This document shows, piece after piece, positions 18,826-58,305 of a stretch of 63,706 nt of DNA. Positions within the stretch are counted from its first letter, which is position 1. Each line of letters begins with the position of its first letter. The position numbers and the translations under genes were made by a program. Location of the stretch: positions 35,216,295 through 35,280,000 of the forward strand of contig JANJGN010000024.1 of NCBI GenBank assembly GCA_026770705.1. The letters run 5' to 3'. Source of the stretch: Isurus oxyrinchus. Taxonomy: Eukaryota. The notes beneath the pieces were generated by a model. It saw only the letters and a list, made by a program, of their open reading frames with translations. It was not told the origin of the DNA and made no database searches.

Positions 18826-19001
18826 AAAACAAAAACAGAATTACCTGGAAAAACTCAGCAGGTCCGGCAGCATCGGTGGAGAAGAAAAGAGTTGACGTTT
18901 CGAGTCCTCATGACCCTTCGACAGAACTACAGTTCTGAGTTTTTCCAGGTAATTCTGTTTTTGTTTTGGATTTCCAGCATCCGCAGTTTTTTTGTTTTTT
19001 C
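18826..19001. mobile_element. Miniature inverted Penelope insertion (hammerhead + tail on minus strand, tail on plus strand)
   Basis: 18826-18928 is the reverse complement of the pLTR end and 18934-19001 is the pLTR tail in forward orientation. Flanks GCTGAAATTTATTG and GCCGATATTTATTG (12/14) look like a TSD. Confidence 0.8.
18890..18928 (-). ncRNA. Minimal type I hammerhead ribozyme (CUGUCGA variant)
   Basis: Same 39-nt motif as 8693-8731. Confidence 0.75.
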
Positions 19002-22194: not shown

Positions 22195-22835
22195 TACTTT
22201 CACAAGATGTGGGCGTCGCTGACCAGGCCAGCATTTATTCCTCAACCCTAATTGCCCTTGAGAAGGTGGTGGTGAGCTACCTTCTTGAACCGCTACAGTC
22301 CATGTGGTGTAGGTACACCCATGGTGCTGTTAGGGCAGGACTTTCAGGATTTTGACCCAGTGACAGTGAAGGAACGATGATATATTTCCAAGTCAGGATG
22401 GTGTGTGGCTTGGAGGGGAACTTATAGGTGGTGGCGTTCCCATGTGTCCGCTGCCCTTGTCCTTCCAGGTGGTAGAGCATGGGTTTGGAAGGTGCTGTCT
22501 AAGGACCCTTGTAGATGTTACACACTGCTGCCACTGTGCGTTGGTGGTGGAGGGACTGAATGTTTAAGGTGGTGGATGAGGTATCAGTCAAGTGGGCTGC
22601 TTTGTCCTGGATGGTGTCGAGCTTCTTGAGCGTTGTGGGAGCTGCACTCATCCATGCAAGTGGAGAATATTCCATCACACTCCTGGCTTGTTCCTTGTGG
22701 ACAGGCTTTGAAGTCAGGAGGTGAGTTATTTGCTGCAGGATTCCTAGCCTCTGATCTGCTCTTGTAGCCACAGTATTTATATAGCTAGTCCAGTTCAGTT
22801 TCTGGTCAATGGTAACTCCCAGGATGTTGATAGAG
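22195..22835 (-). mobile_element. CR1/L2-group LINE 3' fragment (RT C-terminus + tail)
   Basis: ORF 22499-22870 contains ILGVTIDQKLNWTSYIN...RSVMEYSPLAW, typical of the non-LTR RT thumb and C-terminal region, followed by the shared tail. Confidence 0.85.
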
Positions 22836-23087
22836 TTGATTTGTTGCCCAAGTTCTATATACAAATACATATAGCATAAGGAACATAAAAAAACAAATTA
22901 GAAGCGCTAATCCGTTTTAAAGGATATGATGTAATGGCCATCACTGGTTACAAACTGAGCATGAAATATTCCAGGTTATATGGTCTCTGGAAAGGACAGG
23001 AAAATTGGAAAAGGAGGAGTAGCAATATTGATAAAGGATTCTACTGCAGTATCGGAAAGAATGATATATGACCAGCCAATAGACTTT

Positions 23088-25400: not shown

Positions 25401-25538
25401 ATGTGTGAAGTCTGAGTTTGTGGTGACCAACTCCAATACCTGACTATCCTGTCATAAAACCAGGTCTAGGTCCAGAAACAAAAACAGAATTACCTGGAAA
25501 AACTCAGCAGGTCTGGCAGCATCGGCGGAGAAGAAAAG

Positions 25539-25577
25539 AGTTGACGTTTCGAGTCCTCATGACCCTTCGACAGAACT
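25539..25577 (-). ncRNA. Minimal type I hammerhead ribozyme (CUGUCGA variant), left pLTR
   Basis: Reverse complement of AGTTCTGTCGAAGGGTCATGAGGACTCGAAACGTCAACT. Confidence 0.78.
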
Positions 25578-25935
25578 TGAGTTCGAGTCCAAGAAAGTTG
25601 AAATATAAGCTGGTTTAAGGTGTGTGTGTGGGGGGCGGAGAGATAGAGAGAGAGAGAGGTGTGGTTGTATGGACAGAAGCAGATCATCAAAAGATGTCAA
25701 CGACAATAGTACAATAGAACACATAGGTGTTAAAGTTAAAGTTGGTGATATTATCTAAACGAATGTGCTAATTAAGAATGGATGGTAGGGCACTCAAGGT
25801 ATAGCTCTAGTGGGGGTGTTTTTTTTTAATTTTTTTTATATAATGGAAATAGGTGGGAAAAGGAAAATCTTTATAATTTATTGGAAAAAAAAAGGAAGGG
25901 GGAAACAGAAAAGGGGTGGGGATGGGGGAGGGAGC

Positions 25936-27083
25936 TCACGACCTAAAGTTGTTGAATTCAATATTCAGTCCGGAAGGCTGTAAGGTGCCTAGTCGGAAGA
26001 TGAGGTGTTGTTCCTCCAGTTTGCGTTGGGCTTCACTGGAACAATGCAGCAAGCCAAGGACAGACATGTGGGCAAGAGAGCAGGGTGGAGTCTTAAAATG
26101 GCAAGCGACAGGGAGGTTTGGGTCATTCTTGCGGACAGACCGCAGGTGTTCTGCAAAGCGGTCGCCCAGTTTACGTTTGGTCTCTCCAATGTAGAGGAGA
26201 CCACATTGGGAGCAACGAATGCAGCAGACTAAGTTGGGGGAAATGCAAGTGAAATGCTGCTTCACTTGAAAGGAGTGTTTGGGCCCTTGGACGGTGAGAA
26301 GAGAGGAAGTGAAGGGGCAGGTGTTACATCTTTTACGTGGGCATGGGGTGGTGCCATAGGAGGGGGTTGAGGAGTAGGGGGTGATGGAGGAGTGGACCAC
26401 GGTGTCCCGGAGGGAGCGATCCCTACGGAATGCCGATAAGGGGGGTGAAGGGAAGATGTGTTTGGTGGTGACATCATGCTGGAGTTGGCGGAAATGGCGG
26501 AGGATGATCCTTTGAATGCGGAGGCTGTTGGGGTGATAAGTGAGGACAAGGGGGACCCTATCATGTTTCTGGGAGGGAGGAGAAGGCATGAGGGCGGATG
26601 CGCGGGAGATGGGCCGGACACGGTTGAGGGCCCTGTCAACGTCCGTGGGTGGAAAACCTCGGTTAAGGAAGAAGGAGGACATGTCAGAGGAACTGTTTTT
26701 GAAGATAGCATCATCGGAACAGATGCGACGGAGGCGAAGGAACTGGGAGAATGGGATGGAGTCCTTACAGGAAGCGGGGTGTGAGGAGCTGTAGACGAGG
26801 TAGCTATGGGAGTCGGTGGGTTTGTAATGGATATTGGTGGACAGTCTATCACCAGAGATTGAGACAGAGAGGTCAAGGAAGGGAAGGGAAGTGTCAGAGA
26901 TGGACCACGTGAAAATGATGGAGGGGTGGAGATTGGAAGCAAAATTAATAAATTTTTCCAAGTCCCGACGAGAGCATGAAGCGGCACCGAAGTAATCATC
27001 GATGTACCGGAGAAAAAGTTGTGGAAGGGAGCAGGAGTAGGACTGCAACAAGGAATGTTCCACGTACGCCATAGCTGGGGCCC
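25936..27083 (-). CDS. Penelope-like RT-GIY-YIG polyprotein, 5'-truncated (left arm)
   Basis: FLRYIDD (RT catalytic motif), LPFLD, YKPTDSHSYL, CPRKRCNTC linker, NLVCCIRCSQCGLLYIGET (GIY-YIG), GLN at the C-terminus. Frame is open. The ORF-track N-terminus is read-through from the opposite arm. Confidence 0.9.
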
Positions 27084-28239
27084 CAGCTATGCCTGTCTCT
27101 TTATGGGGTATGTGGAACATTCCTTGTTGCAGTCCTACTCCGGCCCCCTTCCACAACTTTTTCTCCGGTACATCGATGATTACTTCGGTGCCGCTTCATG
27201 CTCTCGTCGGGACTTGGAAAAATTTATTAATTTTGCTTCCAATCTCCACCCCTCCATCATTTTCACGTGGTCCATCTCTGACACTTCCCTTCCCTTCCTT
27301 GACCTCTCTGTCTCAATCTCTGGTGATAGACTGTCCACCAATATCCATTACAAACCCACCGACTCCCACAGCTACCTCGACTACAGCTCCTCACACCCCG
27401 CTTCCTGTAAGGACTCCATCCCATTCTCCCAGTTCCTTCGCCTCCGTCGCATCTGTTCCGATGATGCTATCTTCAAAAACAGTTCCTCTGACATGTCCTC
27501 CTTCTTCCTTAACCGAGGTTTTCCACCCACGGTCGTTGACAGGGCCCTCAACCGTGTCCGGCCCATCTCCCGCGCATCCGCCCTCACGCCTTCTCCTCCC
27601 TCCCAGAAACATGATAGGGTCCCCCTTGTCCTCACTTATCACCCCACCAGCCTCCGCATTCAAAGGATCATCCTCCGCCATTTCCGCCAACTCCAGCATG
27701 ATGCCACCACCAAACACATCTTCCCTTCACCCCCCTTATCGGCATTCCGTAGGGATCGTTCCCTCCGGGACACCCTGGTCCACTCCTCCATCACCCCCTA
27801 CTCCTCAACCCCCTCCTATGGCACCACCCCATGCCCACGTAAAAGATGTAACACCTGCCCCTTCACTTCCTCTCTCCTCACCGTCCAATGGCCCAAACAC
27901 TCCTTTCAAGTGAAGCAGCATTTCACTTGCATTTCCCCCAACTTAGTCTACTGCATTCGTTGCTCCCAATGTGGTCTCCTCTACGTTGGAGAGACCAAAC
28001 GTAAACTGGGCGACCGCTTTGCAGAACACCTGCGGTCTGTCCGCAAGAATGACCCAAACCTCCCTGTCACTTGCCATTTTAAGACTCCACCCTGCTCTCT
28101 TGCCCACATGTCTGTCCTTGGCTTGCTGCATTGTTCCAGTGAAGCCCAACGCAAACCGGAGGAACAACACCTCATCTTCCGACTAGGCACCTTACAGCCT
28201 TCCGGACTGAATATTGAATTCAACAACTTTAGGTCATGA
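27078..28239 (+). CDS. Penelope-like RT-GIY-YIG polyprotein, 5'-truncated (right arm)
   Basis: GPSYACLFMG (RT motif B'), FLRYIDD, Cys-rich linker CPRKRCNTC, NLVYCIRCSQCGLLYVGET...RFAEH (GIY-YIG). Frame is open to the stop at 28239. Confidence 0.92.
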
Positions 28240-28622
28240 GCTCCCTCCCCCATCCCCACCCCCTTTCTGTTTCCTCCTTCCTTTTTTTTTCCAATAAATT
28301 ATAAAGATTTTCCTTTTCCCACCTATTTCCATTATAAAAAAAAACACCCCCACTAGAGCTATACCTTGAGTGCCCTATCATCCATTCTTAATTAGCACAT
28401 TCGTTTAGATAATATCACCAACTTTAACTTTAACACCTATGTGTTCTATTGTACTATTGTCGTTGACATCTTTTGATGATCTGCTTCTATCACTGCTTGT
28501 TTGTCCACACAACCACATCACCCCCACCCCCCCCAACCCCTCTCTCTCTCTCTCTTTCTCCGCCTCCCACACACACACCTTAAACCAGCTTATATTTCAA
28601 CTCTTTCCTGGACTCGAACTCA

Positions 28623-28661
28623 AGTTCTGTCGAAGGGTCATGAGGACTCGAAACGTCAACT
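28623..28661 (+). ncRNA. Minimal type I hammerhead ribozyme (CUGUCGA variant), right pLTR
   Basis: Stem I AGTT/AACT, core CTGTCGA (28627-28633), stem II GGGTC/GACTC, GAAA (28650-28653), ACGT palindrome; predicted cleavage after C28657. Confidence 0.78.
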
Positions 28662-29479
28662 CTTTTCTTCTCCGCTGATGCTGCCAGACCTGCTGAGTTT
28701 TTCCAGGTAATTCTGTTTTTGTTTTGGATTTCCAGCATCTGCAGTTTTTTTGTTTTTATCTCTAGGTCCAGAAACATCTGTCTACTTTGCATGTTGTTTC
28801 TACATGCATGAGCAGTATTATGGTGGCTATTTTCAAAGCTGTAACTTAGCCGTCAATGTGTACAGAATGTACTGGTTTGCTAATGTGAGATTGGATTTTT
28901 TAAATATTTTGGGGGATATCGTGCTATTCTGTAAAGGAGGCTGGGTGATTGTGTGTATGTGTGTGTGTGTGTGTGTATATGAATTAATTAAGCTGGGAAG
29001 AGTTTGAAAGGTGTCAGGTTGTCTGGGAGTTTGGAGACATGAAAAGGATAGAGGTGTTAAGTTGAAGTATAAGCAAATAGGTTAGATTTAACATTTGCAT
29101 TTTTAGATAAGTTGAGAGTTTGTTTTAATATCAAAGAGAGTCAGAGGTTAAAGGAAAATGTTTGCATCTTACAGGAGTTCATAGGTAAACAAGTAATGGA
29201 GATATGGTATTTTTATTGACCCCAAAGCAAAGACAAGATGGAAACATGAAAGATCTTATTTTTGGAAGGCTTTGAGTTTCAAAGAGGTGTGAGAACAATA
29301 GAAAGGAGATGAAAGGTAAAAAGGTTATATTAGAGCTACTGTGAATAGCTTGGGATAGCTGTTGAAATAGCTGGAGCTCTGGGCTCGGAGAGAATGCAAT
29401 TTGAATCACCCATCCAGTCAAGCCAGAGATGTATTGGGCTGCAACAAGCAGTTTTATTCTGAAGTGGATTCCATAGCAA

Positions 29480-29869
29480 AGTGGAAGAAGGTAAAGGTCA
29501 TCTGGTATACCTTTATTGAAACTACAGCAGGTTGCCTTGTGTAATATTATAATATTGCTGGATTTCATATTTAAACATCTATAATGTTGTGCTGCCTGGG
29601 AAGTGTTTTCTTGTGGGTTTGACCAAGTATAGAATTTTGAGGAAGTGTTTTCTAAGACTAACCTTAATTGTGTAACTGTAGTCTTAAGTGCTCAGGTTGT
29701 CCTTTATTTTTTGTTAATGAAATGTTTACTTTTATTTTTTAAAAACCCCTTACTGCTGAGATCAGAGCGTCTTCTTCTTGGTTTTAGAAAAAAAGGTTGT
29801 GGTCCGTAAGCCAAATTTCCCTCTGGGATTTGGTTTGTGCAGTAATTAACACCGGCTGTGGTCATAACA
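29480..29869 (+). repeat. 5' LTR (portion shared with the 3' copy)
   Basis: Colinear with 33862-34267; ends CACCGGCTGTGGTCATAACA. Confidence 0.85.
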
Positions 29870-29873
29870 AATT

Positions 29874-29892
29874 TGGGGGCTCTTTGCAGGAT
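29874..29892 (+). promoter_or_regulatory. Primer binding site, tRNA-Pro type (degenerate)
   Basis: TGGGGGCTC-TTTGCAGGAT immediately after the LTR resembles the tRNA-Pro PBS TGGGGGCTCGTCCGGGAT. Confidence 0.7.
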
Positions 29893-29999
29893 TATTAAAA
29901 TACCTTGATTGGGTTGGAGTTTGTGAACCCAAGGGATATGAGCACAAAAAGAACACTGAACTCAGAAGTTTTGTGTTGAGGGGTTTTAAAGTGGTCAGA

Positions 30000-31400
30000 C
30001 TGAAAAATGACTTGAGCAATTGCTATGACTTTTCTGGGAGTGGAAAATTATCTGTGGAGCATTCGAAATCTCCGTTTGAAGCTCAGTTGAGAGAATTAGC
30101 GGATGAAGTGCAGGTGGAGATAAAAGCGGAATTTCGTCAGGCAGATATGGTTAAAGTACTTACCCAGCATTTAAATTGGAGGAAGGGATACCTGTATCCT
30201 GAAGGGATAGCTGTGTGCCACAGCTGGAGGCAGTAAGGCTTCAGTTGCAAATTAAGCAGCTTGATACAGAAGGAGATAGACAAAGGAAAAAGCTTGAACT
30301 GGAAGAAAGAGAAATGAAAAAACTCAAAAAAGAAAAGGAGAGATTGAAAGACCTAGAAATAAAAAAACATTCAATGGGAAAGAGAGCAGCAGGAAAATGA
30401 AAAAAAAAGATTATAAGAAATAGAAATGTGAAGGCATGAACTTGAGCTTCGGAGAGAGAAGTTAACAATTGAGTAAAGAGAAGTGGAAAGAGATAGGGAA
30501 CTTCAGAAAATGTAAGAAGCCACTCATTATGAATTGGAACTTAGAATTAAGGAAGAAAGTAGTGATAGTGATTCAGATGGTGATTTTGATTCCTTTGAGG
30601 AATTTAATTTAACTAAAAACCTGTGGTCAGTGCCCAAGAGGATGGAGTTGAAAAATATTTTACCTCGTTTGCAAAGTTAGCTATGAAATTGAATTGGCCA
30701 AGACATGCTTGCGCTATCATGTTAGAATGTTTTTTTCAGGTACAGCAATGAATGTATATGTAAGCTTCTCAGAGGACCAATGAGCAGATTACAAAACAGT
30801 AAAGTAGACGATAGTAAATGCTTAACAAAAACAAAAACCTATATAAATTATATATAAATTTTAAATGCTTATAAGCTTGTCCCTGAAGCTTATCAGTTGA
30901 AGTTTAGAGCTTTAAGGAAAATACTTAATCAGACTTATATAGATTTTTCAAGAGAAAAATAAATTATCTGGGACCAATGGTTCAGGGCATTAAAGTTAGA
31001 TAAGACTTTTGAAAATGTAAGTGAGATTATGATTATGGAAGAATTTAGAAATAGCATTCCAGTAAACATCAAGATATATTTAGATGAAAGACAAAGCAAA
31101 AAGATCAGAGAAGCTGCATAGCCGATATGTATGATATTTCACATAAACAGTTAAATGTAGGAATAGGGTCATATGGAAATCATCAGACAAGTCGGAAATT
31201 TAGAAAACTGAATGATGGTAAAAATGTTAGTAATAAAGACCAAGCTGGAGAACACCAGTCTATTAAAGATGGAAAGTTGGAAATTAGGATTGAAGGAAGG
31301 AAATTGATATGCTACTATTGTAATAAGGCGGGACACACAAGATCAAGTTGTTGGAGGTTAAACAAGAAACCAATTGCAGTAACTGGAACTCAGAAAGTTT
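30000..31400 (+). pseudogene. gag: Gypsy gag remnant with CCHC zinc knuckle
   Basis: Coiled-coil E/K/R-rich stretch, VEKYFTSFAKLAMKLNWP and AYKLVPEAY motifs, CYYCNKAGHTRSSC knuckle near 31310-31350. Many stops and frameshifts. Confidence 0.75.
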
Positions 31401-31559
31401 CAGGAAGTAAGATACTGTGGGCTCTGATATGCAGAGGCAAGAAAAAACAGTGGTTTATGTACAAGTGGAGCAGGAAGAATCAGTGGTGGCTAAAGAAGTG
31501 GGAATGTATTTGCAACGTACCCAAGGGAGTTCTGAAGGGCAGCTGCAGAGTGGTTTAAA

Positions 31560-34574: not shown

Positions 34575-35260
34575 AAAGCAAAATGCTGCGGACATCTGAA
34601 ATAAAAACAGAAAATGCTGAAAATACTCAGCAGGTCTGGCAGCACCTGTGGAGAGAGAAACAGAGTTAACGTTTCAGGTCGATGACCTTTCACCAGAACT
34701 GGGAAAAGTTAGGAATGTAATAGGCTTTAAGCAAGTGAAAGGAGAAGGTGAGAAAAGAACAAAAGGAAAGGTCTGTGATTGGGTGGAAGGCAGGAGAGAT
34801 TAAATAACAAAAGATTTGGAGGTGAAGGATCAAAGGGACAGTGGGACAAGTAAACAAACAACAGTAGGTGAAAAGCAGAATGACAAACATCTACCATCTG
34901 AAATCAAAACAAGATAAAAATGAGAGTAAAACTGAAACCTGCAAGCTCAAAGGAAACAACATGGGGCCAAGGATGATGGTCTGAAATTGTTGAACTCAGC
35001 TTTAAGTCTGGAAGGCTGCAAAGTGCCTAATTTTAAAAACTGATGTGTTCCCCGAGCTTACATTGAGATTCATTGAATGCTGCGGGAGGTCGAGAACAGA
35101 GAGCAAGGTGGGGAATTAAAATGACAGGTGACTCAAAGTTTGGGGTCACGTTTACGGTCTGAATGGAGATGTTCTACAAAGCGGCCACCCGTTCTGCGCT
35201 TGGTCTCCCCAGTGCACCACAGACTGCATCGTGAAAAGCAAATACAGTTTGCCCATGTGT
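34575..35260 (-). mobile_element. Penelope-like element 3' fragment (second family), decayed, with hammerhead
   Basis: GIY-YIG remnants (HWGDQ/GET-like, EFNNF) on the minus strand. Hammerhead AGTT-CTGGTGA-A-AGGTC-ATC-GACCT-GAAA-CGTT-AACT at 34664-34700. Confidence 0.75.
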
Positions 35261-36194: not shown

Positions 36195-38718
36195 TCAAAT
36201 CAATTTGCCCACGGCCAAAGTCAGACTGATTGGCCTATAATTACTTGGCCTATCCCTTGCATCCTTTTTAAACAATTGTACTACCTCAAATCCTTTGGTT
36301 CCTCGCCTGTATCTATCTGATTGAAAAATAATCCACAGAGCATCTGTTATTTCCTCCTTGGCTTCCTTTAACAGCCTGGGATACAATCCATCTGGCCCTG
36401 GTGATTTATCCACCTTCAAGGATGCCAGTTTCTCCAGTACCTGCTCTCTTGTTATGCTTATTGTATCTAATATTTCACCCTCTGCCTCATTAGTTAGAAC
36501 GTCTGCATTTTCGCTCTCCTTTGTGAAGATGGAGAAAAAGTACCCATTAATAACCCTGCCCACATCTTTTGCATCAATGCATAAGTTATCTTGTGCATTC
36601 CTGATAGGCCCTACCCTTTCCTTAGTTATCCTCTTGCTTTTAATGTACTGATAAAACAACTTTGGATTTTCCTTGATTTTACTTGCCAATATTCTTTCAT
36701 GTCCTCTCTTTACTTCCTTGATTTCATTTTTTCTTCACCCCTGTATTTTCTATACCCCTCTAGGCTTTCTAACGTATTAATTTTTTGTGACAGTCATAAG
36801 CTTTCCTTTTCTGCTTTTTCTTACCCTGTACACTTCCAGATAACTAGGGGGCTCTAGATTTGGCAGTACTGCTCTTTGACTTTGTGGAAACATGTCTATA
36901 ATGTACCCATAGAATCTCACTTTTGAATGTCTCCCACTGGTCTGATTTCCCTTCAAGTAGCTGTATCCAGTCTACTTTCGCCAGATCACCCCTCAGCTTC
37001 GTAAAGTTTGTCTTTCCCCAATTTAGAACTTTTATTCCTGTTCTATCTTTATCCTTTTCCATAATGATGCTAAATCTAATTGTATTATGGTCACTATCTC
37101 CAAAGTGGTCACCCACTGCTACTTCATCCACTTGCCCAGCTTCATTTCCTAAGACAAAATCTAGAATTGCACCCACTCTGGTTGGGCTTGTTATGTGCTG
37201 GCTAAAAAATTTCTCTTGAATGCAGTTTAAGAATGTTGTGCCCTCTGTGCCTATTACACCGTTTGTATCCCAGTTGATATTCGGGTAGTTGAAGTCCCCA
37301 ACTATTATTGCCCTATTGTTTTTGCACTCAGAAATTTGCCGAAATATTTGCTCTTCTATCTCCCTCTCACTATTTGGGGATACTGAGTACACTCTTGGTA
37401 GTGTCGCTGCCCCTTTTTTATTTCTGAGCTCAACTTATATGGGCCTCATTTGATGCTTCATTTAGTATATCATCTTTCCTCACAGCTGGAATTGATTCTT
37501 TAACCAATAATACAACACCCCAACCTTTTCTAGACCCCTCTTTATCCTATCTGAAAAATCCATATCCAGGGATGTTGAGCTGCTATTTTTGTCCCTCTTT
37601 AAGCCAAGTTTGCATTATAACAATGATATCATGCTGCCAGTTGTCTATCTATGCCCTCACTTTGTTTGCTGTACTCATTGCATTTAAATATATACTTTTT
37701 ATAACACTGCAAAATTCCTGTGCTGTACATTTCTTAACTTTTCTTCTTCTGTCTTGCAGAATCACTTGCTAATTTTCTGTCTCTCACTCCCTGCTCTGAA
37801 TTTGTCCTGTCTGAATCTGATCAGGTTCCCACCCCTCTGCAAATCTAGTTTAAACTCTCCCCAACAACCTGAAAGGACATTTGTGCTGCCCCTCTTAGGT
37901 GTAGATCATCCAGCGATCCCATCTTCACCAAAACAGGTCCCAATGCCATAGAAATCTGAAACGCTCCATCCTGCACCATCTCTCCAGCCACGCATTCACC
38001 TGGTGTATTCTCCTATTTCCATACTCACCAGCGTGTAGCCTTAGGAGTGATCAGGAGATTACTACCTTTGAGGTCCTGCTCGCTAATCTCATTTCTAATT
38101 CACTAAACTTAGCCTGCAGGACCTCATCCCTTTTTCTACCTATGTCTTTGGTACAGTGTGGACCATGACCTCTGGCTGTGCACCCTCAACCTCCAGAATG
38201 GCCTGTAGCCATTTGGTGATATCCTTGACCGTGGCATAGGGGAGGCGACGTACCATCCTGGAATCACATCAGCGACCACAAAAGCACCTAACAAATCCCT
38301 ATCACTACTACTCTTCCCCTCTTCTTTCTCCCCTCCTATACAGCTGAACCACCCATGGTGCCACGAATGTGGCTCTGACTGCATTCCTCTGAGGAACGCA
38401 CGCTCTCACCAGCATCCAAAATGGAAAACCAATTTGACTCAGATGACTCCTGCCTGCTGGTCACTCCATCCCTTTCTGCCACCAGGCCCCTGATCTTTGG
38501 TGTGACCACCTCTCTGAATGTGCTATCCATGTAGCTTTCAGCCTCACACGGATGCACCGCAGTGACTCCAGCCGCAGCTTGAACTCTGAAACCTGGAGCT
38601 CAGTTTTCTGCTGCTGGTGACACTTCCTACACATATGGACATCCCGGACACTGGTAGCATCTATGACTTCCCATATATTACAGGATGTGCATTCCACATG
38701 ACCAAGCTGCCTTGCCAT
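36195..38718 (-). mobile_element. CR1 LINE, 5' part (ORF1 + APE + start of RT), decayed
   Basis: ORF1 start MARQLGHVECTSC...CRKC (zinc finger). ORF2 has IIVGDFNYPNINW, ILDFVL, GDSDH (APE) and KSPGPDGLYPRLLKE, NYRPISLT (RT). Confidence 0.9.
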
Positions 38719-43456: not shown

Positions 43457-44942
43457 GGGCTGCCTTCATCAAGTGGATCCTGTAGAAGGTTTGTGGATTT
43501 GAAGCGGAGGACATCTACTTTCTGCCAGACTTTCCCAGCACTGGATATTTCAATGTGGGGTTCAAGCAAGTGGCAGCATGCATCAAGTTCCTGAAGGTGT
43601 TTGAGGAGAAGAGAGACCTGCTGGAGATGAAGATCCTGACGGTGGAGCTGCTCCTTTCTCTGCCGTGGCAATGGGACCGTGTGGTGACTGTGCATCTCTA
43701 CAACCCCTACGTCCCTGTCGCCGACGTGTTCACCTTCCTCACCAGGTACCTCGACAAGGTTGGGAGCTGCACCGAGGTTAGAGACGCCTTTGGGATTTGG
43801 ACATGCAAACACCAGGTTAAGGTCACGCTCAAGACTGATGGTAAGGGAGCCATCTCCCACCCTCCTTCCAGCTTCGCAATGGGGGGAAGCCGTGGCTACC
43901 TTGTCTACGCTGGGCAGTCCAAACTTTGTCGCTCATGTGGCAAGTCTGATCATGTGGTGGCCAACTGCAGCGCCGTCCTCTGCAAGAACTGCAAACAGGA
44001 ACGGCACTAGACAAAGCACTGCAAACAGGCTAAGTGCTGCAACCTGTGTGGCGAGGCAGGTCACCTCTACAAAACCTGCCCCAAACGCTGCCTCACTTAT
44101 GCACAGGCAGCCAAAGCCAACGAGGGGGAAGTAGAGGAAATGCTTCATGTCACTACTACCACCAAGGCCCCCAGTGAGAACAACGGGACAAAGGAGGACA
44201 CAGAGAGAGACAAAGTGGAAGAACAGATTGAGGCGACAGACAGCCAAGCAACAGCACTGCCCCTTGAACCTCCCACTCCTCTGGAAAGCGAATCAATGGA
44301 GGAGGAGGAAGCAGCAGAAAATCAGCAGGGGGAGTGGCAGCTGGTGAAGCGAGCCCAAAGGAAGAAGGGGCTAAGAAGGGACCAAGCATTTCCCAGACAA
44401 GTGGCAAGAGGCGTCTCCCATCCAGCACGGATGACAAGAGCAGCAGCTCTTCGGATGAAGATATGCCAGGGCGGCACCTACAGAAGAAGTGGCAAAGCTC
44501 TAGGGAGTTGGAGGGCAAGACACCCGAGCTCCAGAATATTGGAGACAATGAGGAGATAAGCGCACCCCAACTTTGCCCACAACCCAAAGAGGCCAGTGCA
44601 CCCCAGCCCCAGGTATCTGGGAGCAGTGAAGCGCTCAGCGCACCCCAGCTCCGGGAATCTGGGAGCAGTGAAGCGCTCAGCGCACCCCAGCTCCGGGAAG
44701 CCAGGAACAGCAACGCCCCAGAGGGGGAGAGGATTGGAGAAGCTTCTCCAACAGAGGACATTTCAAATCCCACTCTCTGCACGAACCCCCAGATGCCACC
44801 CGAGCAGAACACCGCCAATGGGGAGGTTCAGGATGCTTTCCTCAGCCCATCCCAAGTGAGGCAATTTGTGAACACTATGGGTATGCAGGAGCAGACCAAA
44901 GATCTGGGACTCTCAGAGACAACAGGTTTGCTAAGAGACTAA
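43457..44942 (+). pseudogene. Tx1 ORF1 (gag-like, ZCCHC3-like, three zinc knuckles)
   Basis: VTVHLYNPYVP...GIWT...YAGQSKLCRSCGKSDHVVANC, CKNCKQERH*TKHC, CNLCGEAGHLYKTC. Internal stops and a frameshift. Confidence 0.85.
44598..44700 (+). repeat. 42-bp in-frame tandem repeat (~2.5 copies) in the Tx1 ORF1 tail
   Basis: GCACCCCAG... units start at 44598, 44640 and 44682 and encode APQLRESGSSEALS-like peptides. Confidence 0.85.
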
Positions 44943-44952
44943 ATGCTTTAAA

Positions 44953-47900
44953 ATGGGTGTAAAGATTGTATCCATAAATGTGCGTAGCATTAAATCTACA
45001 CCGCGATGTGTTGCGACCTTGGATTACCTTGCCAGGGTCAAAGCTGACCTGTTGTTTCTGCAGGAGTGTGCGACACTGCACCTCAGCTCCTACAGACAAT
45101 GTGGTCCCATGGTCCATCAACCTGGTCGGGAGGAAACGACTCTCGTTCCTCCGGCCTAGGTATTCTGCAGCAGGGAGGCAGCTTCACTGTCTCCGAGGTT
45201 AAGGAGGTGGTGAGCGGATGCCTCCTTGTAGCAGACGTAATGTACAAGAATGCTCCACTCCAGGTAATTAACGTGTACACCCCGTCACAAAAGGGCGAGC
45301 GGCTGGAGGTTTTTCAGCAGCTCCCACTGCTGCTGGCGACCTCCAGGCCGGTCATTCTGGGCGGTGACTTCAACTGCATCATCGATGCGGCTGGACGATC
45401 CGGCAGGGCCGACAGCAGATTGGACGCTATGTCCAGATCCCTGATGGAAACAGTAAAGGATGCCAAGCTGCACGACGTCTTCAGTAACCCTGCAGATGGA
45501 GCGCAGCGTAGATACACCTGGTCGCGGCCAGACGGGTCCATCCGTTCCAGGATAGACTTCCTGTTTGTATCCCATATGTTCGCAGTCAGATCCACCGACG
45601 TCAAGCCGGTGTTCTTCTCTGACCACTGCCTCCTACTGGCTGACTGTCACTTAGAGGAAGATCAGAGCGTGGGCAGAGGGGCATGGAAGCTAAACGTGCA
45701 ACTGCTGACTCCAGAGAACTTTGAGGAGCTTGAGGGATTACAAAGGTTGGAGAACCATGAAACCCCACTTTGAGTCACTGACACACTGGTGGGAAGCGAT
45801 CAAGGGAAACATCAAAAGGTTTTTCATCCTCAAAGGCACCCAGAAAGCTAGAAAGGAACAGAGGGAAATGTCCCAAATCCAGAAAAACATGCAGGATCTG
45901 CTCCGGCTACAGTCGATGGGGATCGATGTCAAGGAGGAACTCCAAGAGGTCAAGAGCCAGCAAGCCTCGCTCTTTGCCTCGGAGGCCTCCAAGATCATCT
46001 TCCGTTCCAGAGTCCGCTCCGTGGAGCAGGATGAGACATGCTCACGTTTCTTCTTCCAAAAGGTACACAGAGAGATCTCTGTGATCAGCAGCCTGAAGGA
46101 AGAAGACGGCTCAGTAAAGTCATCGCAGTCTGATACTTTGAGGATCAGCAAATCCTTTTATGCCGGATTATATGACGTGAAGCCCACAGACAGCACGGCC
46201 TCCCAGTCTTTTCTGTCCTCTATCACGGAGGTCTTAGATGACAGTACACGGGAGAGTCTGGACAAACCGCTAGCTCCTGACGAACTGACTAAGGCCCTTG
46301 AGTCTTTCGAGAAGAGTAAAACTCCCGGAAGCAACGGCTTGCCGGCGGAGTTGTATTCGGCTCTGTGGGACTGGATCGGCCCAGACCTGCTAGAAGTGTA
46401 TGAGAGTATGCTCCTGGCCGGCAGTATGTCAGAATCCATGAGGAAAGGCATCATCACCCTCATCTACAAGCACAAGGGGGAAAGGGAGGAAATTAGAAAT
46501 TGGCGACCCATTTCATTGTTGAATGTGGGCTATAAAATTCTGTCCAAGGTCATCGCCAATCGGGTCAAGTCCGCTCTGGAATTGGCAATCCACCCTGACC
46601 AGACCTGCACTGTGCCGGGCAGGAAGATCTCTGACAGCCTCGCGCTGCTCAGGGATACGATTGCCTATGTACAGGACAGGGGTGTGGACACCTGCCTCAT
46701 CAGCCTGGATCAGGAGAAGGCCTTTGACAGAATATCGCACACCTACATGGTGGATGTACTCTCCAAAATGGGGTTTGGGGAGGGAATTCGCAATTGGATC
46801 CAACTGCTCTACACTAACATCAGTCGCGCAGTCTCAATCAATGGGTGGGAATCAGATAGCTTTCCGATTAAACCTGGAGTCAGGCAGGGCTGCCCTCTCT
46901 CCCCTGTCCTGTTTGTGTTGCATAGAACCCCTTGTTGAGTCCATCAGGAAGGATCCGGGCATAAGAGGAGTGACGATCCCAGGCAGTGGAGGCACTCAGG
47001 TCAAAGCCTCCCTGTATATGAACAATGTGACTGTCTTCTGCTCAGATCCGCTGTCGGTGCGCAGACTGATCCACATCTGCAACCAGTTCGAACTGGCCTC
47101 GGGAGCCAAGGTAAATCGTGGGAAGAGCGAGACCATGTTCTTTAGGAACTGGGCTGACCGATCCTTTGTCCCCTTCACCGTCAGGGCTGACGGCCTGAAG
47201 GTGCTGGGGATATGGTTTGGAAGAACTGGGGCATACGATAGAAACTGGATGGAGTGAGAGGCTATGTTGGAAAGAAAACTGGGCATGTGGGAGCGACGCT
47301 CCCTCTCCATTGCGGGTAAGAACCTGGTCATCAGGTGTGTGGCACTCTCGCTGTTGCTGTACGTGGCGCAGGTCTGGCCCATTCCAGACTCCTGCGCGAT
47401 GGCGATCACCCGAGCCATCTTTCGCTTTATCTGGAGGTCAAAAATGGATCGTGTCCGTAGGGACGCAATATACAAGCTTCTAGATAAAGGGGGAAAAAAA
47501 CGTGCCCAACATCGCCCTCATCACCTTTGTATGTGGCTGGATCAAGCTGTGCATAGACCCTCGGTACACAAACACCAAGTGTCACTACGTGCTGAGGTTC
47601 TATCTGTCCCCGGTGTTGCGAAGGATGGGTCTGGCCACGTTGCCGCGGAACGCTCCAAGTAGTTGGACCATGCCATACCACCTGTCCCTCGTGGAAATGT
47701 TTATGCAGAGAAACATCTTTGACCACAAGTCCATCAGGCAGTGGTCGGCACATAACATCTTAGAGGCCCTGCGGGAAAAGGAGAGGGTGGATCCTGTGGG
47801 ATAGTTCCCCGAGCAGACTTTTCAAAGTCATTTTACAGAATGCCTAAACGCCAGAACTTTCCAACAAGCACCAAGATGTAGCTTGGCTGGTGGTGAGAAA

Positions 47901-48335
47901 GGCCCTCCCTGTCAGATCTTTCCAACACACCAGGAGTCTCACCCCCTCGACACGTTGCCCTCGAGGTGGCTGTGGTGGGGACGAGACCGTTGTTCACCTC
48001 CTTGTGGATTGTGCCTTTGCAAAGAAGGTCTGGAGAGAGATGCAGTGGTTTCTGTCGAGGTTCATCCCGAGCAGTTCTGTGACACAGGACTCTGCTCTAC
48101 GGGCTGTTCCCAGGGACACACACCGAGACAAACATCAGCTGCAGCTGGAGGATCATCAACTCAGTAAAAGACGCTCTTTGATCTGCCCGAAAGTTGTTGG
48201 TCTTCCAGCGCAAAGAGTTGTCCCCGACCGTGATGCAGACTGGCACATTCCAAAGTCCAGGACTACGTGCTGAGGGATGCACTAAAGCTTGGGGCAGCTG
48301 CTGCAAAGGGGCAATGGGGAAGGGTCACTGTCTAA
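44953..48335 (+). pseudogene. Tx1 ORF2 (APE endonuclease + RT + zinc finger)
   Basis: MGVKIVSINVRS, FLQE, GGDFNC, SRIDF, FSDH (APE); WRPISLLN, SLDQEKAFDR, GVRQGCPLSP, YMNN (degenerate YMDD); CPRGGCGGDETVVHLLVDC. Several frameshifts. Confidence 0.92.
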
Positions 48336-55529: not shown

Positions 55530-56900
55530 AGCTTGACGTCTGTCATGGGGAATCAATCATTAAGGAGGTTATAGCTGGGCACTTCGTAGTGCTCAAGACA
55601 ATCGGGAAGAGTCAGCATGGTTTTGTGAAAGGAAAATCATGTTTAACCAAATCATATTTATTGGAGTTTTTTGAAGGAGTAATATGTGCAGTGGATAAAG
55701 GGGAGCCTGTAGATGTACTGCAATTAGATTTCCAGAAGGCATTTAATAAGGTGCTACATCAAAGATTATTAGGGAAAACAAAAGCACATTATTTAGTGGG
55801 TAACATATTAGCATGAATACAAGATCGGCTGGCTGGGAGAAAGCAAAGAGATGCATAAATGGATCTTTTTTGAATTGACAGGATGTGACGAGTGGAGTCC
55901 CACAGAGGTCTGTGCTGGGGCCTCCACTTATTACAATTATGTAAATTGGTGTACAATGACTTAGATGAGGGGAGCGAAGACATGGTAGCTAAATTTGCAG
56001 GTGACACAAAGATAGGTAGGAAAATATGTTGTGAGGAGAACATGAGGAGGTTGCAGATGGATATAGATAGGTTGAGTGAGTGGGCAAAGATCTAAATGGA
56101 GCTTAATGTGGGAAAATGTGAAGTTGTTCACTTTGGCAGGAAGAGCAAAAAAGCAGAGTATTACTTAAATGGAGAACAGCTTCATAACTCTGAGATGCAG
56201 AAGGATCTAGGTGTTCTAGTACATGAGTCACAAAAAGTTAGTATGCAGGTATAGCAAGCAATTAATGGAATGCTATACTTTATTATGAGAGGGATTGATC
56301 ATAAAAGTAAGAATATTATGCTTCAGTTATACAGGGCATTGGTGAGCCCACACCTTGAACATTGTCTGCAGTTTTGGTCTCTTTATTTAAGGAAGGATGT
56401 AAATGCATTGGAGGCGGATCAGAGGAGGTTTACTAGATTGAAACCTGGAATGAGTGGGTTGTCTTATGAGGAAAGGTTGGACAGACTGGGCTTGTTTCCA
56501 CTGGAGTTCAGAAGAATGAGGGGTGATTTGATTGAAGTATACAAGATCCTGAATGGCTTTGACAAGGTGGACGTCAAAAGGATGTTTCCTGTTGTGGGTG
56601 AGTCCAGAACTAGGGGGCAGTGTTTTAAAATTATGGGCCACTCTTTTAGGACGGAGATGAGGAGAATTTTTTTCTCTGATGGTTGTGTGACTTTAAAACT
56701 CTGCCTCAGAAGGCAATGGAAGTGGGGCCATTGAATATTTTTAAGGCAAAGGTAGGTATTGGCAGGGGAATCAAAGGTTATCAGGGTTAGGTGAGAATGT
56801 GGAAATCGAAACACAGATCAGCCATGTTCTCATTGAATGGCGGAGCAGGCTCAAGAGGCCGGACAGTCTACTCTTGTTCCTATTTCTTATGTTCATATGC
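55530..56900 (+). mobile_element. CR1 LINE 3' portion (RT + C-terminus + 3' tail), decayed
   Basis: QHGFVKGKSCLT, LDFQKAFNKV, KFAGDTK (FADD), LYRALVSPHLEHCLQFWS, SRTRG; tail CCTATTTCTTATGTTCATATG. Confidence 0.92.
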
Positions 56901-57789: not shown

Positions 57790-58305
57790 AATCGATAAGC
57801 AGAATACTGTAAATGCTGTAAGTCTGAAATAAGAACAGAAAATGTTTGAAGTAATGGACTGAGGACAGAAATGTCAGAAATGCCTATTGCGTTGTTCCAG
57901 TGAAGCTCAACATCAGCCTGAGGAACAGCACCTCATCTTTCAGTTAGGATCCTTTACAGCCTCCTGGGCTCAACATTGAGTTCAACAATTTTTGACTATA
58001 ATCTCTGCTCCATTTTGTTTGCTTTGCTTTTTTGTTTTTTCTCTTATTTTTTGCTTTTGATCAGCAGCACACATGCTGTTTTGTTTCTTTTCTTGTCCCA
58101 TCACCATTCTCTTTGGCCCTGGAGGACTAACTCTTCTCCTGCCTTCTACCCTATTCATAGACTTTTGTCCTTCTCCCACCCGCCCCTTGCTCAAAACCTC
58201 CTTTCCCAGTTCTGATGGAAGGTCACAGGCCTGAACTATTAACTCTTTTTCTGTCCACAGATGATGCCATAATCTGCTAAGTATTTCCAGCATTTTCTGT
58301 TTCTG
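57790..58305 (+). mobile_element. Penelope-like 3' fragment (second family) with degenerate hammerhead and short inverted tail
   Basis: EEQHLIFQLGSLQPPGLNIEFNNF* near 57920-57995; AGTTCTGATGGAAGGTCACAGGCCTGAACTATTAACT near 58208-58244. Confidence 0.75.

Follow-up and report, generated by a model that had tools for sequence, protein, structure and literature searches.

A lineage-wide U at core position 6 in the minimal hammerhead motif of a shark Penelope-like retroelement suggests an attenuated ribozyme

A Penelope-like retroelement of Isurus oxyrinchus carries a minimal type I hammerhead motif with U instead of A at position 6 of the conserved core (CUGUCGA rather than CUGANGA), and this substitution is shared by a whole lineage of copies. 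Older subfamilies have A6; U6 arises in copies about 4.5% diverged and persists to the youngest, which are 0.9% diverged. On balance, we lean towards reading the motif as an attenuated hammerhead whose cleavage is dispensable for copying of the element. By analogy with other core variants, A6U likely slows self-cleavage. The novelty lies in the lineage-wide U6 of a Penelope minimal hammerhead; a natural A6C hammerhead has already been published.

The window, the whole stretch of DNA analysed here, comprises 63,706 nucleotides of contig JANJGN010000024.1. One copy of the motif is at 28623-28661 (+), where stem I is formed by AGTT/AACT, the core occupies 28627-28633 (U6 at 28630) and is followed by an extra A at 28634, stem II has five pairs (28635-28639/28645-28649), GAAA is at 28650-28653, and CGU-C precedes the predicted cut after 28657. 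The heptamer CTGTCGA matches eight times in the window. Five of the matches have a hammerhead context, at 8868 and 28627 on the forward strand and at 8721, 18918 and 25567 on the reverse strand; the other three lack such a context. A first-pass annotation had named these five copies and had described an ACGT palindrome with a GUC triplet in four of them, and the sequence agrees on both counts: the exception is 8864-8902 (+), where a G-to-A change at a CpG has produced AUC. The five copies represent only three insertions. The copies at 8693-8731 (-) and 8864-8902 (+) are the two arms of a short inverted pair (8591-8970), the copy at 18890-18928 (-) belongs to a short fold-back copy beginning at stem I (18826-18999), and the copy at 25539-25577 (-) sits in the inverted arm of the larger fold-back (25471-28780) that also contains 28623-28661. 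A shifted register restoring CUGANGA can be ruled out, as there is no A between G5 and A9.

Three further motifs in the window are older. The copy at 11267-11305 (-), which had been presented as a canonical sister, does have a CTGATGA core (stem II AGGTC/GACCT), but it no longer has a cleavage triplet or a stem I 3' strand, and its family is more distant than that description implied. The same older family is represented at 34663-34701 (-) by a copy whose G at position 6 is probably private to it. Finally, a decayed older copy at 58208-58246 (+) has A at position 6.

The host element encodes a reverse transcriptase (RT) and a GIY-YIG endonuclease, and the motif is located in its pseudo-LTRs (pLTRs), as had been proposed from the known Penelope minimal hammerheads. 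In the window, the 3' part of the open reading frame (RT end, Cys linker and GIY-YIG endonuclease) is found at 26980-28239 (+), 5'-truncated near the fold-back junction at 27050, with an inverted twin at 25936-27195 (-) in the second arm of the 25471-28780 insertion. The ORF fragment lies upstream of the motif and ends 384 nt from it. The intervening sequence (28240-28622, +) is the 3' UTR or pseudo-LTR, with the flank of the youngest subfamily just before stem I, and the motif is followed by a conserved leader/tail (28662-28762, +) where the ends of copies concentrate near 28720 or 28750-28762. A candidate splice donor (AG/GTAA) is present at 28700-28712 (L222 4666-4756), behind the motif and before the ORF start. 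Penelope elements keep introns. No spliced joint at this donor was found in four contig sets, the RNA status of three of which was guessed.

We fetched five regions surrounding copies that continued into the ORF. Two of these, L222 and L224, contain uninterrupted frames of 926 codons (918 amino acids from the first Met) with U6 motifs on both sides, and L224 is a tandem array with a unit of about 3.35 kb. The single ORF encodes RT followed by GIY-YIG. In Pfam searches of the full-length ORFs, RVT_1 (E 7e-8) was above the cut-off in one of the two and GIY-YIG was below it (E 9e-4); homologues of the 918-residue protein bear RVT_1 and PF26215. Among the 120 matches listed, the named relatives of highest identity are two shark proteins (64% and 66%). 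A Cys linker, C-x4-C-x2-C, near residue 785 and ahead of the endonuclease, fits the CX2-5CxxC pattern that defines the Neptune clade (PMC8557442). Together, these features point to an autonomous Neptune-type Penelope-like retroelement, the clade being assigned from the Cys linker alone. A non-LTR retrozyme is ruled out, given that the tandem unit encodes 918 amino acids rather than being non-coding.

The window also contains remnants of other elements. A broken LINE at 43486-48273 (+), which we take to be of the L1/Tx1 kind from its look, has a zinc-knuckle ORF1 followed by endonuclease and RT frames in several pieces. Fragments resembling LINE endonuclease and RT at 36195-37434 (-), 22499-22897 (-) and 56255-56734 (-) are presumably CR1/L2-type, and short frames with a CCHC knuckle at 29868-31558 (+) are presumably the decayed gag of an LTR element.

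Genome-wide, an exact 36-mer of the motif occurs 58,078 times in 4.98 Gb and the reversed pattern not at all, so the abundance of the motif is not due to chance. On the same stems, U6 was found 85,234 times and A6 171 times; a looser pattern returned 2,682 A6 copies, mostly with other loops, and 2,413 C6/G6 copies. U6 thus dominates and CUGANGA is not the genome-wide consensus, in keeping with the earlier suggestion that the base change is older than the amplification. The 171 A6 copies are not a surviving canonical master, as they are spread across N7 states and across flanks of both old and young type in the manner of back-mutations. Two near-full-length copies, L220 (3759, 7054) and L221 (4387, 7696), combine a 5' repeat of the A6 type with a 3' repeat of the U6 type. 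Their ORFs are broken and they share a rare flank; they probably represent one back-mutation that was duplicated. A large tandem segmental duplication at G000:C21:86.9-87.7 Mb repeats one old copy nine times at a spacing of roughly 70-120 kb. An independent raw-read run covered the motif deeply, with no majority change listed at 28630. From read runs of related organisms, four reads aligned over the motif from one run and none from two; one contig, labelled as another organism, matched the young subfamily, perhaps through carry-over.

The order of events was obtained from 311 motif sites, picked by pattern rather than as a random sample and sorted by upstream flank into eight groups (194 sites), with 117 sites truncated or unplaced. 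Divergence was expressed as the median at non-CpG positions of the ORF 3' ends, using 50/55 and 42 copies and excluding short copies and one inverted partner. The A6 groups gave 5.6, 4.8 and 4.7%, and a fourth of three copies 3.4%; the A6 groups are not ordered among themselves, and rooting on the oldest is weak, as it has three copies with ORF, one of them misassigned. The U6 groups gave 4.5, 3.8, 2.0, 1.9 and 0.9%. The direction of change is taken to be A to U because the older families and 56 published cores have A6. A hand count of the first 100 of 6,514 matches listed for the transition group gave 59 U6, 36 A6, 3 G6 and 2 C6, and A6 in these 100 was tied to one loop type (20/23 versus 16/77, p=1e-8). 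Thus, the change does precede amplification, as the first-pass annotation had proposed, and it is far older than the recent burst, running through five U6 subfamily groups.

Position 6 changed again in a side branch, amplified later than U6, that has C6 in the core CTGCTGA. This heptamer accounts for 82 of the first 100 C6/G6 matches listed for the looser pattern. Sorted by flank, the first 100 of 6,272 matches listed had C6 in 4/4 copies with AACC, 6/18 with ACCC and 1/78 with ACCT (p=4e-7). Simple decay was rejected as an explanation of C6, which is bound to one flank type and common to both arms of several inverted pairs; one pair has discordant arms.

Outside position 6 the motif has changed little. 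In the majority state, C3, U4, G5, G8, A9, G12, A13, A14, the A15.1-U16.1 pair and an NUH triplet are constant in 8/8 groups, and the extra base between 9 and 10.1, the G10.1-C11.1 pair and the palindromic 15.2-16.2 are all present, the last in four of the five window copies. From the oldest to the youngest U6 group, the changes are at N7, at two loop II bases, from A-U to G-U in stem II and from GUU to GUC. All five are of a kind that hammerheads tolerate (p about 0.001-0.005 under random placement), and they affect 4/7 free sites versus 1/31 constrained sites (p=0.002). Given that the later changes are all at tolerated places, the fold still looks constrained, and we regard its continued constraint as moderately shown by these comparisons. 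The statistics are less decisive when the ORF is used as the yardstick: between the same two groups, 19/138 four-fold sites and 7/269 second positions differ, giving p=0.08 for constrained motif sites against four-fold sites, and zero change across 12-15 core sites has a chance of 0.11-0.17. Recombination is a possible source of two of the five changes, which are also found in A6 sister group B1. In an alignment of 24 rows, hand-picked and pattern-selected, stem II was 100% paired with one G-C/A-U two-sided event and one via G-U, and stem I was 82% paired with no two-sided change. Among the 311 sites, which were found with patterns that select against such changes, none represents an amplified subfamily in which G5, G8, G12 or GAAA is broken.

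In the isolated U6 39-mer, stem II is predicted with a probability of 0.98, and the stability equals that of shuffled sequences (z=0.06). In context, stem II is predicted to be disfavoured in every group (median P 0.00-0.51), with 0.00-0.03 in the young groups versus 0.02-0.51 in the A6 groups (small n). A U6A revertant of the present-day motif is predicted to misfold, with U4-G8 paired to the cleavage strand (-11.3 versus -7.3 kcal/mol), and would therefore be a poor control. The youngest subfamily has gained a 9-nt direct repeat before stem I (28609-28617, repeating 28644-28652) that consists of the stem II 3' strand and GAA and pairs with the core region in predicted read-through RNA folds. 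A role of this repeat as a specific anti-ribozyme found no support, as stem II is disfavoured even in its absence. Rfam hammerhead models gave no match in the window or in eight loci, five of them chosen for their A6 copies. The Rfam miss is therefore not caused by U6, since A6 forms are missed as well; the earlier claim that consensus searches overlook U6 holds for descriptors requiring CUGANGA, which do undercount.

The copies themselves record how they were made. They span the cut site; thus, if they were reverse-transcribed, the template RNA was uncut there. In the raw reads, coverage increases about twofold at 28624, and 5,774 loose ends fall at 28623, partly because of older flanks. Using a three-mismatch proxy for 5' junctions, we counted 5,229 U6 junctions at stem I, an overestimate since about 35 of the first 100 matches listed look like flank variants, versus 231/88,874 at the cut site. 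Thirty of the 231 were inspected and proved to be 19 inversion junctions, seven small deletions and four unrelated flanks. Among 30 consecutive U6 copies, 11 begin at stem I, three within the motif, none at the cut and 16 upstream. For the A6-rich family, 59/4,477 junctions were at the cut site, nine of them from one duplicated region; 30 inspected ones comprised seven unrelated flanks, five inversions and 18 motif-bearing sequences, and of 30 consecutive copies none begins at the cut and seven begin within the motif. After correction, cut-site junctions amount to about 1.1-1.3% in the A6-rich family versus 0.5% in U6, a difference confounded by age, and to about 1.5 times their own background in both families, with a clear peak in neither. 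As the A6-rich family also lacks a cut-site peak, the missing peak does not set U6 apart; cut RNA may simply be destroyed. The 5'-end hot-spot at 28623, the first base of the motif, probably marks the RNA start; Drosophila Penelope carries an internal promoter at this place (PMC2377424). In the inversion junctions of L134, L144, L146, L148 and L154, the end of the inverted arm, the complement of the stem I 5' strand, equals the stem I 3' strand, and we read these inversions as the result of a template switch at the microhomology that stem I of the ribozyme itself provides.

The reading we favour, an attenuated hammerhead, can be put as follows. Element RNA would start at stem I and run through the ORF into the 3' repeat, and reverse transcription would begin in the tail 3' of the motif. 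Only RNA uncut there could then yield a motif-bearing copy. Cutting at the motif would remove the start site or cap, so a cut would not be needed for a copy and may hinder copying. A6 would have changed to U a single time, in the master lineage, damping an already weak ribozyme at little cost; the lineage would tolerate U6 because uncut RNA is the likely template of its copies. What is left of the fold may be maintained because some cutting persists, probably with help from the protein, or because the fold serves the RNA 5' end in a way that does not involve catalysis; the constraint on the other core positions is explained by catalysis no less well than by structure.

Other explanations of U6 deserve consideration. 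It could be purely local, the product of misassembly, of decay in a handful of copies or of a non-autonomous derivative, a suspicion that the window might raise, since five copies there reduce to three insertions; this idea is refuted, and we give it next to no weight, in the face of 58,078 exact copies, intact ORFs that carry U6 and independent reads without a listed majority change at 28630. A doubtful but serious candidate is that U6 is a tolerated working core, with the element protein, dimerisation or cellular metal conditions compensating for A6, and that cleavage matters. The constancy of the other core bases, G10.1-C11.1, the ACGU palindrome and the NUH triplet over five U6 groups speaks for it, as does a triplet that stayed cleavable in going from GUU to GUC. 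Natural A6C is active, though slow, and the PAc hammerhead of a lizard Penelope element cleaves only with its own protein (PMC11167929); the poor predicted folding of stem II in context would oblige every family to rely on such help. Against a working core, position 6 changed twice in amplifying masters, to U and then to C, a pattern more suggestive of relaxed constraint than of tuning; activity is low in minimal Penelope hammerheads even with A6 (PMC4209133), and cut-site junctions are slightly commoner in the A6-rich family, a comparison subject to the age effect noted above. In a more specific form, which we consider unlikely, A6 would no longer be needed because the retroelement protein completes the active fold, so that the RNA cuts only inside the ribonucleoprotein and position 6 has been freed lineage-wide.

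The opposite possibility, a dead ribozyme whose sequence is kept by overlap with a promoter or RNA start and a protein-binding leader, or has had too little time to decay, strikes us as quite improbable. The motif does begin exactly at the 5'-end hot-spot, where the Drosophila internal promoter offers a precedent (PMC2377424), and the leader behind it is also conserved (five changes in 40) though it is not a hammerhead. The unchanged core could be due to chance at the level given above, the 39-mer folds no better than shuffles, and the young groups have the weakest predicted stem II in context. However, the changes spare hammerhead-constrained sites and preserve pairing, and a DNA promoter is not expected to track an RNA consensus; nor did any amplified subfamily among the 311 pattern-selected sites break G5, G8, G12 or GAAA.

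The Penelope hammerhead could be a processing signal, a brake or a passenger. The shark lineage amounts to a natural experiment: one element, with intact coding copies and a dated A6/U6/C6 series on stems that hardly differ. Should U6 prove almost inactive, then a thriving element has spent the greater part of its recorded history with a damped ribozyme, and the damping may even have aided its spread by sparing RNA. Should U6 cut with protein, hammerhead cores would be under a less strict rule in the cell than in vitro. In both cases, a census restricted to CUGANGA misses tens of thousands of these motifs in this genome.

Hammerheads altered at position 6 have been found to cut slowly. A6C cleaves at under 0.1/min (Perreault 2011, PMC3088659), in another hammerhead A6C runs more than 10,000 times slower in Mg than in Mn (Naghdi 2020, PMC7151607), and single mutants of the CUGA turn have low activity (PMC9901934). 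The two A6C papers cover the natural A6C hammerhead of phage Bcep176. In the accessible text of the literature searched on position-6 mutants, we found no cleavage rate for A6U itself. The accessible parts of PMC6765202, PMC11014351 and bioRxiv 10.64898/2026.07.22.740005 contain no position-6 variant, and no natural A6U hammerhead appeared in the accessible text of the literature searched, which did not extend to Lunse et al. 2017 and in which supplements consisting of figures could hide one. The core of the C6 branch, CUGCUGA, is identical to that of Bcep176, a match of sequence alone. The Bcep176 hammerhead is a single intergenic RNA from a phage, and its cleavage, which has been measured, is slow and favoured by Mn, whereas U6 here is inherited lineage-wide and known from sequence.

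The closest structural counterparts are the minimal hammerheads (min-HHR) of Cervera and De la Pena (2014, PMC4209133), which are weakly active even with A6. The shark motif resembles them in being placed in both pLTRs of an RT/GIY-YIG element, in its 4-bp stem I, its extra base 9/10.1, its G10.1-C11.1 pair, its palindromic 15.2-16.2 without loop III and its NUH triplet, and in occurring mostly in truncated single copies. It differs in having U (or C) at position 6, where theirs is A6. All 56 representatives in Fig. S3 of that paper are A6; the descriptor demanded this core, and cartilaginous fish are absent from the figure. The core variant that the paper names is U3-A8. Given that its core departs from CUGANGA, we file the U6 motif as a variant, outside the canonical min-HHR set.

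Among Penelope elements, the Neptune clade is matched by the RT, the CX2-5CxxC linker, the C-terminal GIY-YIG domain, the partial tandems and the inverted truncated copies, with the caution that the placement uses only the linker, which Nematis has too. Naiad elements thrive without canonical hammerheads, elements lacking hammerheads can be more abundant, and the hammerhead role in Penelope is described as an open question (PMC8557442). Poseidon PAc of Anolis carolinensis, in which catalytic mutants leave in vitro insertion unaffected (Frangieh 2024, PMC11167929), likewise has a pLTR hammerhead, tandem repeats and two preferred 3' ends behind the motif, and nothing in the accessible text points to RNA ends at its cut site. 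The two differ in that PAc has a core that cleaves with its protein and an ORF that begins inside the ribozyme; the long ORF of the shark element begins about 170 nt behind the motif and encodes a Neptune-type Cys linker.
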